Shown: positions 2,717 through 10,511, numbered from the stretch's first letter. The stretch is 64,000 bases of DNA from Thermoplasmata archaeon (GCA_046540335.1 JBKHFH010000001.1:8045-72044); one strand, 5' to 3'. Numbers and translations are program-made. The notes: generated by a model not told the origin, from the sequence alone.

Positions 2717-2801
2717 GCGAGGGTAGCCAAGCTAGGCCAACGGCGCAGCGTTGAGGGCGCTGTCCCGTAGGGGTCCGAGGGTTCGAATCCCTTCCCTCGC
2801 A
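2717..2801 (+). tRNA. tRNA-Leu (anticodon GAG), class II with long variable arm, no encoded CCA
   Basis: Acceptor stem GCGAGGG/CCCTCGC. Anticodon stem CAGCG/CGCTG with loop TTGAGGG. T-arm GAGGGTTCGAATCCCTT. 13-nt variable arm. Confidence 0.85.
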
Positions 2802-2907
2802 TTCAATTATCTTTCTGGATTTTTAGAGAAGGAGAAAAGTAAAGAGGAAATTTGTATACAACTTTATAGCTAATTAGAACCTTGCAAAAATATATGATAA
2901 GCTGTTA

Positions 2908-3099
2908 GTGAGGATATACGCCGACTCCTTCAAAAAGGATATTGCCATGGGTTATGGGGCTAGAGAATCCATAAGTAAGCTGGAGTTCCACTTTCAGGAC
3001 AACCTCCTAGCGAGGACATACAATAAGCTCAGACACATACGGCAGGGTGGTATTCTACTTCACCTGAAATTGAATCTAGATTTTGACGAGTTCGCCTGA
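2908..3099 (+). CDS. Hypothetical small ORF (63 aa) in the AT-rich spacer of the island; may be non-coding
   Basis: ORF track only. No recognisable motifs. Confidence 0.15.
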   Translation: MRIYADSFKKDIAMGYGARESISKLEFHFQDNLLARTYNKLRHIRQGGILLHLKLNLDFDEFA

Positions 3100-3400
3100 G
3101 ATCTAGCGGGAAAGACACAAGCAGGATGAAAACGAGTGGATTATAGTTGATTTAGAGAAAAAAGACTTTTATAAACTGCTTCTATTAGGATTAGCAATCA
3201 TTCACCCTTTTTTGGAAGAATAAAGCATAAGTGCAGATGATCTAATAGAGATTTACGATCGGCTGATCTCAACGAGACAAGAAATGACTTGAGTGCCGAC
3301 TAAGTTTTGATGAATGACTTGGACGAAAATACAGCAGGGTATATCGATTAAAATGACCCAGATACTGATGGATGAAAACCGATAGGTGAGAGATATAAGG

Positions 3401-3775
3401 CAGTATCACTCTTTCTCTTTGTATCCGGTTTTAGAGAGTAATTCGTCCATCTGCGCCGAATTCACACATTCCATCGCAACCTGGAGAAGGATGGCTTTAA
3501 AGAACTCTTCACCTTGATGGCTCTTTTTACATTCTGGACATATCTTTTTTTGGGGTAAATGTTTCCTGAAATCGGGATCATCTTTCATTTCATTGTATAT
3601 CTCTTCGGCAAAATCGATCAATTCGTTTCTTAACCCGGAGTCTTTAACGGCTCTCGAAACTTCTCTTCCTATACCTCTCATGTACCTGCGAGTGAAAACG
3701 AGGTCTCCCCAAACATCATCTCTGGTACCTATAGGGTTGTCCTCGTACATCGAGATCTCCTGGCAGGGCTGGTAA
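3401..3775. repeat. Direct repeat block A (copy 1), about 93-95% identical to 8031-8405. Covers the 3' half of the regulator gene
   Basis: Read directly: long collinear matching stretches with scattered mismatches. Confidence 0.85.
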
Positions 3776-4107
3776 TAACAGTACGACCTCCTTCCCATCT
3801 TATTTTTTCTTTTCTCTTCAGCTTCACCTTCCGTGGGACGACCCGGTTCGCTTTCTACATCCCGTTTTTCCTTTTTCTTATTGATTATACCTTGTCTCCA
3901 GAGATCTTTCACCGCAGAATAAATCGTAGATAGAGGCTGCCCGGTCTCTTCGGATATCTCCTGAGCCGTTATGCCTTCAAGACCGTTATTTCTGATAGCC
4001 TTCAAGCAGGCCCAAGTAGCTTCATTTCCGAGTACGTCTGCAGCCATGTCGCTGCTTACGGGGAAAAAATTGAGGTATTCCTTTTTCTCCATCGTATCAC
4101 GTTTCAT
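3406..4107 (-). CDS. Transcriptional regulator: N-terminal winged-HTH, Lys/Glu-rich linker, C-terminal domain with a CPECKK motif. Divergently transcribed from the surface-protein gene
   Basis: wHTH-like segment GITAQEISEETGQPLSTIYSAVKDLWRQGII. A C-terminal 3' fragment of the gene is duplicated at 8031-8415. Confidence 0.6.
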   Translation of the reverse strand: MKRDTMEKKEYLNFFPVSSDMAADVLGNEATWACLKAIRNNGLEGITAQEISEETGQPLSTIYSAVKDLWRQGIINKKKEKRDVESEPGRPTEGEAEEKRKNKMGRRSYCYYQPCQEISMYEDNPIGTRDDVWGDLVFTRRYMRGIGREVSRAVKDSGLRNELIDFAEEIYNEMKDDPDFRKHLPQKKICPECKKSHQGEEFFKAILLQVAMECVNSAQMDELLSKTGYKEKE

Positions 4108-4357
4108 GATTATGTAATTATATTATTTTAAATTTTTGTAATAACAAAATTATGTACCTAACGACTCGAGATTGGGTTGATATATTTTCTAGGGCATGAG
4201 AATTAAGTGAGGTAGATAAAATGAGAAGCCTAAAAATCGGGTTAGGAAGGAACCGCATGAGAAGGGAAATGAACGTAGAGATCGAATTGCAAGACGACCA
4301 GAAAAAGAAAAACTTTTTACGAAGAAGCAATAAGAAACCGTAGATAAGGTGATTAAT
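4108..4357. promoter_or_regulatory. Divergent promoter region between the regulator and the surface-protein gene. AT-rich, and contains a 40-aa upstream ORF (4221-4343, MRSLKIGLGRNRMRREMNVEIELQDDQKKKNFLRRSNKKP)
   Basis: Intergenic between divergent genes. Duplicated nearly identically upstream of the paralogous gene at 8461-8715. GGTGA Shine-Dalgarno before the ATG at 4358. Confidence 0.4.
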
Positions 4358-4432
4358 ATGAAAAAGAAAATATTTGTGTTTACTATCGCGCTTTCTCTGC
4401 TGCTCAGCGGGACGCTTGTCGTGGTCGGAGGC
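4108..4432. repeat. Direct repeat block B (copy 1), about 98% identical to 8461-8790. Covers the promoter, upstream small ORF and first 25 codons (signal peptide) of the surface-protein gene
   Basis: Read directly: about 270 nt identical from atatattttctagggcatgag to gtcgtggtcggaggcga. Confidence 0.9.
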
Positions 4433-8030: not shown

Positions 8031-8405
8031 TCTTTCTATTTATATCCGGTTTCAGAGAGCAAATCGTCCATCTGCGCCGAATTCACACACTCCACCGCCA
8101 CCTGGATAGAATGGCTTTAAAGAACTCTTCACCTTGATGGCTCTTTTTACATTCTGGACATATCTTTTTTTGGGGTAAATGTTTCCTGAAATCGGGATCA
8201 TCTTTCATTTCATTGTATATCTCTTCGGCAAAATCGATCAATTCGTTTCTTAACCCGGACTCTTTGACAGCTCTCGAAACTTCTCTTCCTATACCTCTCA
8301 TGTACTCGCGTGTGAAAACGAGGTCGCCCCAAACATCATCTCTGGTACCTATGGGGTTGCCCTCGTCTATCGAGATCTCCTGAGACGTGATAGCGGAGTA
8401 ATATT
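8031..8405. repeat. Direct repeat block A (copy 2)
   Basis: Collinear match to 3401-3775. Confidence 0.85.
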
Positions 8406-8415
8406 TCTGATAGCC
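8083..8415 (-). pseudogene. Truncated second copy of the regulator gene. Only the C-terminal roughly 110 codons are present, with no wHTH domain
   Basis: Minus-strand translation ...YQKYYSAITSQEISIDEGNPIGTRDDVWGDLVFTREYMRGIGREVSRAVKESGLRNELIDFAEEIYNEMKDDPDFRKHLPQKKICPECKK matches residues 110-220 of the 3406-4107 product. Homology ends abruptly upstream. Confidence 0.65.
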
Positions 8416-8460
8416 CCCATGCAGTTTTAGGCGGAGATCTTCTTTTTAATTCTATCAGTT

Positions 8461-8790
8461 TTCCTAATTCTGTAATTACATTATTTTATATTTTTGTAAT
8501 AACAAAATTATGTACCTAACGACTCGAGAGTGGGTTGATATATTTTCTAGGGCATGAGAATTAAGTGAGGTAGATAAAATGAGAAGCCTAAAAATCGGGT
8601 TAGGAAGGAACCGCATGAGAAGGGAAATGAACGTAGAGATCGAATTGCAAGACGACCAGAAAAAGAAAAACTTTTTACGAAGAAGCAATAAGAAACCGTA
8701 GATAAGGTGATTAATATGAAAAAGAAAATATTTGTGTTTACTATCGCGCTTTCTCTGCTGCTCAGCGGGACGCTTGTCGTGGTCGGAGGC
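8461..8790. repeat. Direct repeat block B (copy 2): promoter, upstream small ORF and signal-peptide codons
   Basis: About 98% identical to 4108-4432. Confidence 0.9.
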
Positions 8791-10346
8791 GAGGTGATGG
8801 ATGAAAGTGTTAGTAAAGATTTTAAAGAAGTTGAATCTGAGGCTACAGAAATCCAGGATTGGCACGACTTAGACGAGATAAGAGATGACTTAAGCAGCGA
8901 CTACGTTCTAGTTGACGAACTTGATGAAATACAGATGGTTATGAGGACTACAATGCTCAAAGAGAAGATCATGAAGTAGTATATTTTGCAGGATCAGACG
9001 AACACTGGAAAGACGGCGATACTATAGAAATAGAATATGGTGAAGATGAATATGATTCTGTTCTATCAGTCGAAGATGAAGAGGGCAACCCGATCAGTTA
9101 TACGGTAGAGCATCCTACAATAACAATAGAGGTGGACACCAGAGAAAGCCGTTTAGGTGTAAACTTCGAGAACGCCGTCGTAGGTTGGGAACCGATAGGG
9201 AACGATGAGAATCCATTTAACGGTACTTTCGACGGTAACGGTCATGATATAAGTGATTTAAATATAAAACGCGGTGGAACGTCCGGTATCGGAATATTTG
9301 GTTTTACCGGTCAAGAAGTTGAAATCAGAGATATCGGTCTTGTCGACTTAGAGGTGAAAGGATTAGGATACGTAGGTGGACTCGTGGGCTATAACAAGGG
9401 CAATATTTCCGATTCCTATGTAACAGGTGAGGTGAGCGGAGTTAGTTCTGTAGGCGGATTAGTTGGACTAAGCTTAGAAGGCGAGGTGAAGACCTCATAT
9501 GCGACAACTGATGTGAGCGGTATGGAGGGAATTCATGTAGGAGGACTCGTGGGACTAAGCCATAGTACGGTAAACGCATCGTATGCGACCGGTGACGTTA
9601 GTGGAGAGGGTCATTTAGGAGGACTCGTGGGACTAAGCCATAGTACGATATACGGATCGTATGCGACCGGTGATATTAACGGTGAAGAAAATGTGGGAGA
9701 ACTTGTAGGAAATAATGCAGGAATCTCGAAAGATTCTATTGAGAATTCCTATGCGACTGGTAACGTTAACGGTGAAGAATTTGTAGGAGGTCTCGTTGGA
9801 CATAACAAAGCTAACATTGAGAATTCGTATGCATCTGGGGACGTTAACGGCGAAAAATTTGTAGGAGGATTAGTAGGATTAAATTCTGCTGGACCTGGCC
9901 CAGGTTACCCTGATATGCCTTTTCCTTCAACTGTCAAAACGTCTTATGCGTCCGGTGAAGTGACCGGTGAAGAAAATGTGGGAGGACTAGTCGGATTGAG
10001 CGAGTCAGGCAATGTCACCCATTCTTACTGGGATATCGAAACTTCTGGAATTGAGGAGAGCGACGGTGGAACAGGCCTAACAACGGATGTGATGACAGGT
10101 GAAGAAGCTCCTAAAAACATGGACGGTTTTGACTTCGAAGAGGTCTGGGAGACTGTTGGGGAGGATGATGAAGATGCTGAAGAGAACGGCTATCCTATCT
10201 TACAGGAGTTGGACAGAGAAGAACAGCTCGAGGCTCAAAATATTTATGGAGATGATGACGGGATCCCAGGATTCACATCGTTACTCCTCTTAGTAGCTTC
10301 GATCATCGCAGTAGCTATCTACCAGAAGAAAAGTAAAAAGCGGTGA
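8716..10346 (+). pseudogene. Paralogous GLUG-repeat / PGF-CTERM surface protein without an M14 domain. Disrupted by a frameshift near 8930-8980: frame-1 ORF 8707-8979 carries the signal peptide, and the frame-0 ORF opens at 8928
   Basis: Identical signal peptide. N-terminal piece IQDWHDLDEIRDDLSSDYVLVDELD parallels IENSHHLQKMEDNLEAHYELATDIDAS of the paralog. The downstream frame carries WEPIGNDENPFNGTFDGNG, about 10 GGLVG repeats, and the C-terminus GIPGFTSLLLLVASIIAVAIYQKKSKKR. Confidence 0.65.
9540..9695 (+). repeat. Intragenic tandem duplication (2 x 78 nt = 2 x 26 aa GLUG units, near identical)
   Basis: ggaggactcgtgggactaagccatagtacg... occurs at 9540 and again at 9618 with few substitutions. 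Confidence 0.7.
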
Positions 10347-10489
10347 AAAGGATAGATACAACTGCTGCAACGAGAGATTAAAAAAACCCATTTCCTACTT
10401 CATTTTTTCTTATCAAAATGATGATTGAGTGAAATAGAGGATTTATTGTACAGAGATGATTTGAACAGTGGATTTGTATACAAATAGGC

Positions 10490-10511
10490 GTTAAATTCCC
10501 ATCCCTCGCAT
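10490..10511 (+). repeat. Degenerate direct repeat of the tRNA-Leu 3' end (17 of 22 nt, core cccNtccctcgcat). Candidate right boundary (attR-like) of the island
   Basis: gttaaattcccatccctcgcat at 10490-10511 versus ggttcgaatcccttccctcgcat at 2780-2802. Confidence 0.35.

Follow-up and report, generated by a model that had tools for sequence, protein, structure and literature searches.

Several families of archaeal integrative elements target tRNA genes, among them the pTN3/TKV-type, the pT26-2-type of Thermococcales and Methanococcales and the SNJ2-type of haloarchaea (PMC8371274). Here we describe an accessory island of ~7.7 kb (2802-10511) which adjoins the 3' end of a tRNA-Leu(GAG) gene in a Thermoplasmata archaeon. 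The window, the whole stretch of DNA that was analysed, comprises 64,000 nucleotides (GCA_046540335.1, JBKHFH010000001.1:8045-72044) and all positions are counted from its first letter. Very probably the island was inserted at the tRNA-Leu end by a site-specific recombinase that is no longer encoded there. We consider it probable that 2802-10511 represents the integrase-less remnant, or the cargo, of a tyrosine-recombinase integrative element that uses tRNA ends in halo(alkali)philic Thermoplasmata and that is comparable to the cis-mobilizable elements (CIMEs) of bacteria.

The likeness to the archaeal elements (PMC8371274) is that they integrate into the 3' part of tRNA genes and duplicate the tRNA end, that closely related integrases among them use different tRNAs, tRNA-Leu(TAA) included, and that integrated copies promote chromosomal rearrangement (TKV2/TKV3 inversion; Int-pTN3). 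Unlike in those elements, the integrase of the present relatives is a classical, non-partitioned XerA-like enzyme with a SAM-like N-domain, preceded by a ribbon-helix-helix (RHH) gene, and the copy in the window is without any integrase. The papers searched contained no description of a halophilic Thermoplasmata host or of this attachment (att) site architecture, i.e. a palindrome on both arms and a mimic of the tRNA T-arm, and no paper was found on mobile elements of uncultured halo(alkali)philic Thermoplasmata (Natronoplasma/Saliniplasma-like).

CIMEs and their accretion at tRNA and other att sites are known from Streptococcus (PMC5704250). They resemble the present system in tandem scars or accretion at one hotspot and in mobilisation only via the integrase of a related element. 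CIMEs are bacterial and conjugation-linked, whereas the system here is archaeal and without known transfer functions, and its mobility in trans is a prediction. By this comparison the locus would be an integrase-less island of an ordinary kind, like a CIME at a tRNA-Leu hotspot; it is unusual only in the clean conservation of its end site across relatives. The integrase by which an autonomous element is recognised is absent from the island.

The cell-wall island of Haloquadratum walsbyi (PMC4535781) is likewise a variable slot for large secreted or anchored surface proteins in a hypersaline archaeon. Envelope flexible islands of that type are thought to be exchanged by homologous recombination via conserved flanks (PMC4535781), whereas here the limits of the cargo are set by a conserved att-like site together with duplicates of the tRNA 3' end. 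Integron cassettes are similar in being short, often single-gene, recombinase-less units that have their own site and occupy a fixed resident site, and cassette-sized units of 2-2.6 kb occur here in the relatives' loci L019, L100, L010 and L021. An integron was nevertheless ruled out, there being no resident integrase in 64 kb, no conserved fold of the attC type and no site between the two cassettes, and the target being a tRNA end.

The far-side repeat, the P-M-A site and the slot in relatives

The sequence at 10490-10511 (GTTAAATTCCCATCCCTCGCAT) is identical to the tRNA 3' end (2781-2802) at 18 of 22 positions, one more than a sequence-only reading of this DNA had counted, and 14 of the last 15 nucleotides agree. 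That reading had left the chance level to be checked. When the 20 kb downstream were shuffled 1000 times with dinucleotides preserved, an equally good match arose in 0.1% (22-mer) and 0.2% (15-mer) of the shuffles, so that the repeat exceeds chance. A scan of both strands of the window with up to two mismatches returned the tRNA end and the far repeat only (0.16 expected), and the other tRNAs of the window (Ser, Pro, Arg) have no repeat of their 3' ends.

The repeat belongs to an attR-like site of 38 nt (10474-10511, plus strand, as are its parts), designated P-M-A. P is the 10-nt palindrome TTGTATACAA (10474-10483); M, between P and the core, mimics the tRNA T-arm and has the form AGGCGTTAAAT in the window; A is the core TCCCATCCCTCGCA(T) (10497-10511), which is of the tRNA-Leu(UAA) type. 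In the family form P is the same, M reads AT.GGCGTTAGTT and A is the tRNA 3' core TCCCTTCCCTCGCA. The window's site matches a profile of the relatives' sites at E = 1.6e-12 (nhmmer), while those in L002, L005, L010, L012, L017, L019 and L021 score 1e-10 to 1e-13. Within the 64 kb there are just two occurrences of the octamer TGTATACA, at 2853 (51 nt past the tRNA) and at 10475 (14 nt before the core repeat). RNAalifold gave -0.48 kcal/mol for P-M-A, with no covariation and no conserved RNA fold; a structured RNA was thereby ruled out, and the motif therefore reads as a DNA site. A profile search showed no further att-like copies inside the island and none between its two cassettes, which rules out accretion of two elements within it.

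On the other side the island starts at the tRNA-Leu(GAG) gene (2717-2801, plus strand; ARAGORN; 45 bits with the Rfam tRNA model), which forms the attL side and contains the shared core TCCCTTCCCTCGCA at 2788-2801. The gene is intact, its shared parts being identical to those of the relatives' genes. It is followed by a left arm (2802-3045, plus strand) that consists of a 48-nt spacer F (2802-2849), the palindrome P as ATTTGTATACAA (2850-2861), a degenerate T-arm mimic and core, and the start of a 63-aa open reading frame (ORF). This arm is 76% identical to the stretch after tRNA-Leu(GAG) in L021 and thus as conserved as RpoD coding DNA. The proximal arm (tRNA, F, P and degenerate M-A) can be aligned between the window, L021, L019, L010, L012 and L017.

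The host is a halo(alkali)philic member of the Thermoplasmata whose RpoD is 85-88% identical to that of Natronoplasma-like metagenome-assembled genomes (MAGs). It belongs to the same species as the MAG GCA_046539565.1, a contig of which matches window 1-12653 at 99.95%, pseudogenes included. The island was compared by blastn with 68 RpoD-anchored loci. P-M-A recurs after tRNA-Leu(GAG) in at least 10 related genomes, among them L002, L005, L010, L012, L013, L017, L019 and L021, with a weak copy in L007; as a motif it is kept in >=9 independent genomes. It lies 55-270 nt from the tRNA, with no ORF, in L017, L012, L005 and L002; the distance is 2.5-2.7 kb in L021, L019, L010 and, for the weak copy, L007, 4 kb in L013 and 7.7 kb in the window. 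No relation is seen between the cargoes of different genomes, which range from a GLUG protein or a surface protein of 1204 aa to unknown ORFs or no cargo at all, and the slot was empty, short or otherwise filled in 10 relatives. The island that had been proposed beside tRNA-Leu thus has the tRNA 3' end as one boundary and, as the other, an att-like copy of a tRNA-Leu 3' end, in a slot where relatives hold other cargo.

Three comparisons bear on the boundaries. The ~100-nt flank directly after the tRNA in L007 corresponds to the flank after P-M-A in L019 and L010, with 78-83% identity versus 66-73% for the RpoD DNA of the same genomes, and L019 has a perfect 30-nt direct repeat made up of the core plus 16 nt. 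L013 and L019 share the genes on both sides of the slot and differ in cargo. An occupied and an empty site were found at tRNA-Ser(GGA) beside Cbf5, where L100 (2546-4642) carries an insert of 2.08 kb and L098 (at 2705) carries none. The L100 insert is integrase-less and holds one gene, for a 559-aa surface protein with GLUG and InlB B-repeats. At its end the palindrome TTACATGTAA (10 nt) is followed by a T-arm mimic, GGGTTAAACT (GTTAAAYT; GGCGTTAAAT in the window), and by a 13-nt exact copy of the tRNA end, and the insert has a degenerate palindrome/mimic/core unit at its tRNA-proximal end as well. Taken together, the L007/L019/L010, L013/L019 and L100/L098 comparisons indicate that the element itself carries the architecture tRNA[core]-spacer-Pal-M'-A''-cargo-Pal-M-[core]-native flank, and that the boundaries drawn earlier are essentially right. 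The locus and its relatives define a tRNA-Leu integration hotspot and a conserved att-site architecture.

A replacement flexible island, exchanged by homologous recombination with no site-specific integration, would equally give a slot of variable content. P-M-A, F and a module H described below would then be resident host sequences, serving as promoter, operator or processing elements. This is in keeping with the predominance of surface-protein genes in the slot of several genomes, and beside tRNA-Ser, with the cargo-less P-M-A copies in L012, L017, L005 and L002, with flank modules that are more conserved than RpoD DNA, and with the cell-wall islands known in Haloquadratum (PMC4535781). We nevertheless regard it as distinctly unlikely. 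Exact tRNA 3'-end duplications of 15-30 nt bound the cargo and clean empty sites are seen in the pairs L019/L007 and L100/L098, a combination typical of site-specific insertion. The palindrome is also present in integrase elements, which are inserted at these tRNA ends too. Furthermore, the genes to the right of P-M-A differ among genomes, and P-M-A is therefore not tied to a downstream gene.

Module H is a two-hairpin unit found in relatives directly 3' of the tRNA-Leu end or of the P-M-A core (L002 11302-11355; L087 ~12195-12250, minus strand; L012 11073-11125; L017 11084-11135; L005 6775-6812) and absent from the window. It reads TACGCAG-[GRAAGGC N4 GCCTTYC]-GAAGTAAAG-[GGGGGA..TCCCCC]-RCA. 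Comparison of genomes reveals compensatory G-C/A-T changes in the first stem, and the module may represent a structured 3' trailer RNA or an att scar of another type.

The core mismatch and tRNA-Leu(UAA)

All 17 tRNA-Leu(GAG) genes and both tRNA-Leu(CAG) genes end in TCCCTTCCCTCGCA, with T at the variable position. All four tRNA-Leu(UAA) genes (L069, L070, L077, L087) end in TCCCATCCCTCGCA, which is the far-side core of the window. The closest relative with the same right flank is L087 (Cbf5 75% and SDR, the short-chain dehydrogenase/reductase, 76% identical in amino acids, followed by tRNA-Ser). There an intact, intron-containing tRNA-Leu(UAA) gene lies in the same orientation ~180 nt before SDR, at the position where the window has P-M-A and a pseudogene of a major facilitator superfamily (MFS) transporter. 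From the core identity together with this arrangement it follows that the far-side repeat is a UAA-type att core and not a decayed GAG copy. The sequence-only reading had proposed a tRNA-targeted integration with a decayed attR. The integration remains probable, with an integrase element present at this tRNA in a relative; the decay does not stand, since the site fits the consensus and its core is that of tRNA-Leu(UAA).

A single old integration at tRNA-Leu(GAG), with the far repeat a point-decayed GAG end and MFS/SDR the native neighbours, would account for a repeat that neighbours the tRNA in the right orientation, and the pseudogenised cargo suggests age. We hold this history to be unlikely. 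The sole core difference is the tRNA-Leu(UAA) base, for which a random single change has a chance of about 1 in 45, and the rest of the 38-nt site fits the family consensus and is not eroded. Moreover, the ortholog of SDR in L087 is preceded by tRNA-Leu(UAA), and MFS/SDR follow tRNA-Leu(GAG) in no relative. The genome in which tRNA-Leu directly precedes MFS/SDR, which had been suggested as a synteny check, was thus not encountered.

Two histories would fit a UAA-type core at this locus. In the first, an element would have brought in a UAA-type attP, whose crossover with tRNA-Leu(GAG) fell on the right of the base that differs, and later recombination between identical UAA cores would have given the L087 arrangement. 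In the second, integration would have occurred at tRNA-Leu(UAA), and the right half would have been joined to the GAG locus via two elements or att sites. Both fit only with an exchange between tRNA-Leu paralog sites. Exchange between integration sites has a precedent in Thermococcales with TKV2/TKV3 and Int-pTN3 (PMC8371274). A mismatch in an att repeat can, then, record the identity of a second tRNA paralog instead of decay, which bears on target switching by integrases and on the rearrangement of archaeal chromosomes.

The Logan unitig L083 starts exactly at 10497. Such a start is expected if another sequence of the sample, e.g. a real tRNA-Leu(UAA), shares the core and at least 16 nt of flank, and we take it as a hint; it is likewise the sole hint of excision or mobilisation by an integrase in trans. 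In addition, a 100%-identical FKBP gene precedes tRNA-Leu(CAG) and an RHH-integrase element in L076 (7003-9422), tRNA-Leu(CAG) in L095 (7357-8512), and tRNA-Leu(UAA)-SDR-tRNA-Ser-Cbf5 in L087 (12134-14624), the divergence lying inside the upstream repeat array. This conflict of L076/L095 with L087 may reflect a real exchange between tRNA-Leu loci in one population or an assembly chimera.

That the repeat arose by chance, or that the junctions are assembly artefacts from repeated tRNA-Leu sequences, appears extremely improbable. Many contigs and unitigs do break at tRNA-Leu genes, and L076 and L087 conflict upstream of one, as such an artefact would have it. However, the shuffles gave p ~0.001-0.002, the motif is kept in those >=9 independent genomes, the arrangement is reproduced in the second assembly with 6 single-nucleotide differences, and tRNA-Leu paralogs share <=31 nt, far below read length.

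Contigs or unitigs ending at tRNA-Leu or at the att core were seen for L003-L006, L008, L009, L011, L014, L015, L018, L020 and L095-L097; among the Logan/MAG break points, L085 ends at window 2741 and L083 starts at 10497. The breaks are consistent with the segments common to tRNA-Leu paralogs (31 nt at the 5' and ~25 nt at the 3' end) and variable downstream content, and the tendency of this clade's MAG contigs to end at tRNA-Leu is explained by these repeats.

The recombinase and the origin of the island

The absence of an integrase, already noted in the sequence-only reading, was borne out. Six-frame searches of the island and the whole window with hidden Markov model (HMM) profiles of the family integrase and the RHH protein gave no match, and Pfam found no integrase among the window's ORFs. 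In the islands of relatives the only true match to the same profiles was a deletion remnant in L077. Joining 9900-10511 to 2803-3500 yielded only ORFs of 40-43 aa; no partitioned integrase gene is thus reconstituted at the island ends, and an SSV-type ('suicidal') element was ruled out.

An integrase is found at the same tRNA in relatives. In L001 and L080 (RpoD 85%), tRNA-Leu(GAG) is followed by 4 nt, P, a TATA-like box, an Arc/RHH gene and a tyrosine recombinase of 306-311 aa (PF00589, 1e-25) with a SAM-like N-domain, and then by helicase-like and unknown genes. The tRNA-Leu 3' core as target and the adjacent palindrome P are common to the RHH-integrase elements of L001, L069-L072 and L076, and P would be the operator of the RHH protein. 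Soda-lake relatives of the integrase, 67-81% identical, follow tRNA-Leu(CAG), an intron-containing tRNA-Leu(UAA) or tRNA-Met and lie 3-6 nt past the tRNA, P being present in the closer ones. The integrase (L001 6314-7246) is 50-56% identical over its full length to 1143 archaeal Xer-type homologs, e.g. that of Geoglobus ahangari, which suggests that a XerA-like enzyme was recruited as a tRNA-targeting integrase. The locus and its relatives thus define a XerA-like integrase family on several tRNAs, and integrase-less surface-protein cassettes.

A further element, in L102 (9300-9800), has a 74%-identical integrase, a D5_N/DUF5906 primase-helicase and a LAGLIDADG protein. Short iterated repeats (GTTGGT.., CGTGGT..) in L102 resemble a replication origin, and no recognisable att site was found within 10 kb of this D5-primase element.

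If the island is the remnant or cargo of such an element, its insertion may be pictured as follows. The element family would insert into the last ~14 nt of tRNA genes, its attP carrying a T-arm mimic with an exact copy of the tRNA 3' end (M-A) and the 10-nt palindrome P (TTGTATACAA) on both sides. Crossover inside the core would leave the tRNA intact at attL, where the right arm of the element (F-P and the degenerate M-A, 2802-~2890) would follow it, and the left arm with the core (P-M-A, 10474-10511) would become attR at the far side. The cargo would be two regulator and surface-protein cassettes, one of them a partial duplicate, both now disrupted. The recombinase module, i.e. the RHH repressor and XerA-like integrase of related elements, would have been lost or never carried; with this module absent, further movement is predicted to need an integrase in trans. 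Where the crossover fell, what P does and in which order the steps took place are inferences.

Several results weigh against this picture. Besides the missing integrase, whole or partitioned, the sequences of L001, L080 and L081 stop, or are interrupted by insertion sequences, before the far end of the integrase element, and P-M-A would be linked to the integrase through the shared palindrome and target only. The cargo-less copies of P-M-A in L012, L017, L005 and L002 demand a secondary step of deletion, leaving a 'solo scar', or may point to P-M-A being resident in the host. In an empty site CTTTATTCTC... would directly follow tRNA-Leu; an isogenic site of this kind did not turn up among the relatives, none of which joins tRNA-Leu(GAG) to MFS/SDR. 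The composition of the island is not atypical, with a G+C content (GC) of 0.421 compared with 0.437 in the whole window. A chimera in L087 on the upstream side of tRNA-Leu(UAA) is conceivable, which would leave its tRNA-SDR junction unaffected. Finally, searches of IMG/VR with the motif and the integrase, and of phage and plasmid collections with the island, gave no match.

A match in L103 that came up in the search for free or viral forms was dismissed as a chance match to a promoter pattern.

A bolder proposal, which we regard as doubtful, is that the integrase-less units are not dead remnants but work as a cassette system in which single surface-protein genes with their own att site are taken up, cut out and swapped in trans. 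Examples could be the island of the window, the 2-2.6-kb inserts of L019, L010 and L021 and the GLUG cassette at tRNA-Ser in L100, and the swap among the ends of tRNA-Leu(GAG/CAG/UAA) and tRNA-Ser could be carried out by the XerA-derived integrase with its RHH partner. If true, it would provide integron-like variation of the cell surface, with the shuffling of segments between tRNA-Leu paralogs as a side effect.

Island content and flanking genes

As the sequence-only reading had stated, tRNA-Leu is followed by a regulator, surface-protein cassettes and pseudogenes, with a transporter pseudogene beyond the repeat. Its claim of 600 bp of AT-rich non-coding DNA after the tRNA holds in part. At 2802-3405 the enrichment in AT is no more than mild (GC 0.379; window 0.437), and this stretch contains the 63-aa ORF (2908-3099), which is partly conserved in one relative.

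The regulator gene (3406-4107, minus strand) encodes a winged-helix protein of the TrmB/HTH_24/Lrs14-like type (PF01978, 1.7e-5; PF13412, 2.2e-5), the NCBIfam Lrs14-like match being weak. It is transcribed divergently from the surface-protein gene of cassette 1 (4349-7840, plus strand), for which Pfam and sequence features indicate a signal peptide, an M14 carboxypeptidase domain, GLUG repeats, InlB B-repeats, CarboxypepD_reg and a C-terminal PGF-like anchor. The PGF-CTERM anchor was recognised by eye and had no HMM match. An in-frame TAA (5252-5254) splits this gene, and the peptidase domain resumes beyond it. The same stop is present in the independent MAG contig and is therefore no sequencing error; the gene appears to be a pseudogene or a split gene.

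Repeat search, alignment and tblastn revealed a partial duplicate of cassette 1 at 8013-8792. It covers the source segments 3392-3762 and 4081-4434 at 93-98% identity, corresponding to an internal duplication of ~1 kb (3392-4434), and holds the C-terminal part of the regulator (remnant 8030-8415, minus strand), the divergent promoter region and the start of the signal peptide (first ~30 codons). A deletion of ~270 nt in this second copy removes the helix-turn-helix (HTH) domain of the regulator. The second GLUG surface-protein gene (8707-10346, plus strand; Pfam Glug 3.7e-31) is frame-disrupted, with a signal-peptide ORF at 8707-8979 and the GLUG body and PGF-like anchor at 9132-10346; homologs occupy the same slot in L019 and L020 and the tRNA-Ser cassette in L100. 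The non-coding right arm (10347-10473, plus strand) is homologous to the stretch between the GLUG stop codon and P in L019, and blastn aligned window 10256-10517 with L019 13363-13615 at 70% identity.

To the right of the island the MFS transporter pseudogene (10591-11759, plus strand) lies in three frames, with Pfam MFS_1 matches on three ORFs. It is broken by a stop or frameshift at ~10942-10946 and again near an A7 run at ~11211-11217. Both breaks are identical in the independent MAG and in a Logan contig/unitig, and the gene is absent from L087. The native right flank comprises SDR on the plus strand (11829-12581) and, on the minus strand, tRNA-Ser(GGA) (12600-12685), Cbf5 (12835-13779) and then the spc ribosomal operon.

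To the left, S13-S4-S11-RpoD immediately precede tRNA-Leu(GAG), and the adjacency of RpoD and tRNA-Leu is kept in 16 relatives. The island had been seen against an expected L18e-L13-S9-RpoN-RpoK operon after tRNA-Leu. In ~25 close and distant Thermoplasmata loci that operon never follows RpoD/tRNA-Leu; its absence here is therefore uninformative, and this synteny was rejected as a yardstick.

RpoD (S13 operon) and Cbf5 (spc operon) converge 10 kb apart in the window, as against ~36 kb in L002, a further hint of exchange between tRNA-Leu paralog sites. Window 50481-52893 (minus strand) matches L002 16820-19349 and window 52911-53099 matches L093 16594-16800, so that genes 6-8 kb past tRNA-Leu(GAG) in the L002 genome lie, inverted, at 50-53 kb in the window. 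The region around the tRNA-Leu hotspot is thus rearranged between genera.

Outside the island, two leader units of ~63 nt (2591-2716, plus strand) were read from the sequence before the tRNA. The second (2653-2716) opens with the first 12 nt of the tRNA itself, GCGAGGGTAGCC, followed by the hairpin GAGGAAT..ATTCCTC. Tandem units of 63-71 nt precede every tRNA-Leu gene (GAG, CAG, UAA) in the window and its relatives (L005 6405-6617; L011 10915-11135; L076 9201-9336; L087 12360-12620, minus strand). Every unit begins with GCGAG, and one type consists of GCGAGGGTAGCC, the hairpin GAGGAAT..ATTCCTC and CCCTCG. No Rfam family matched the units. Copy numbers of 0 to at least 3 were seen, and in L005 and L011 the copies are near-identical; the units may be duplicated promoters/leaders or encode a co-transcribed small RNA.

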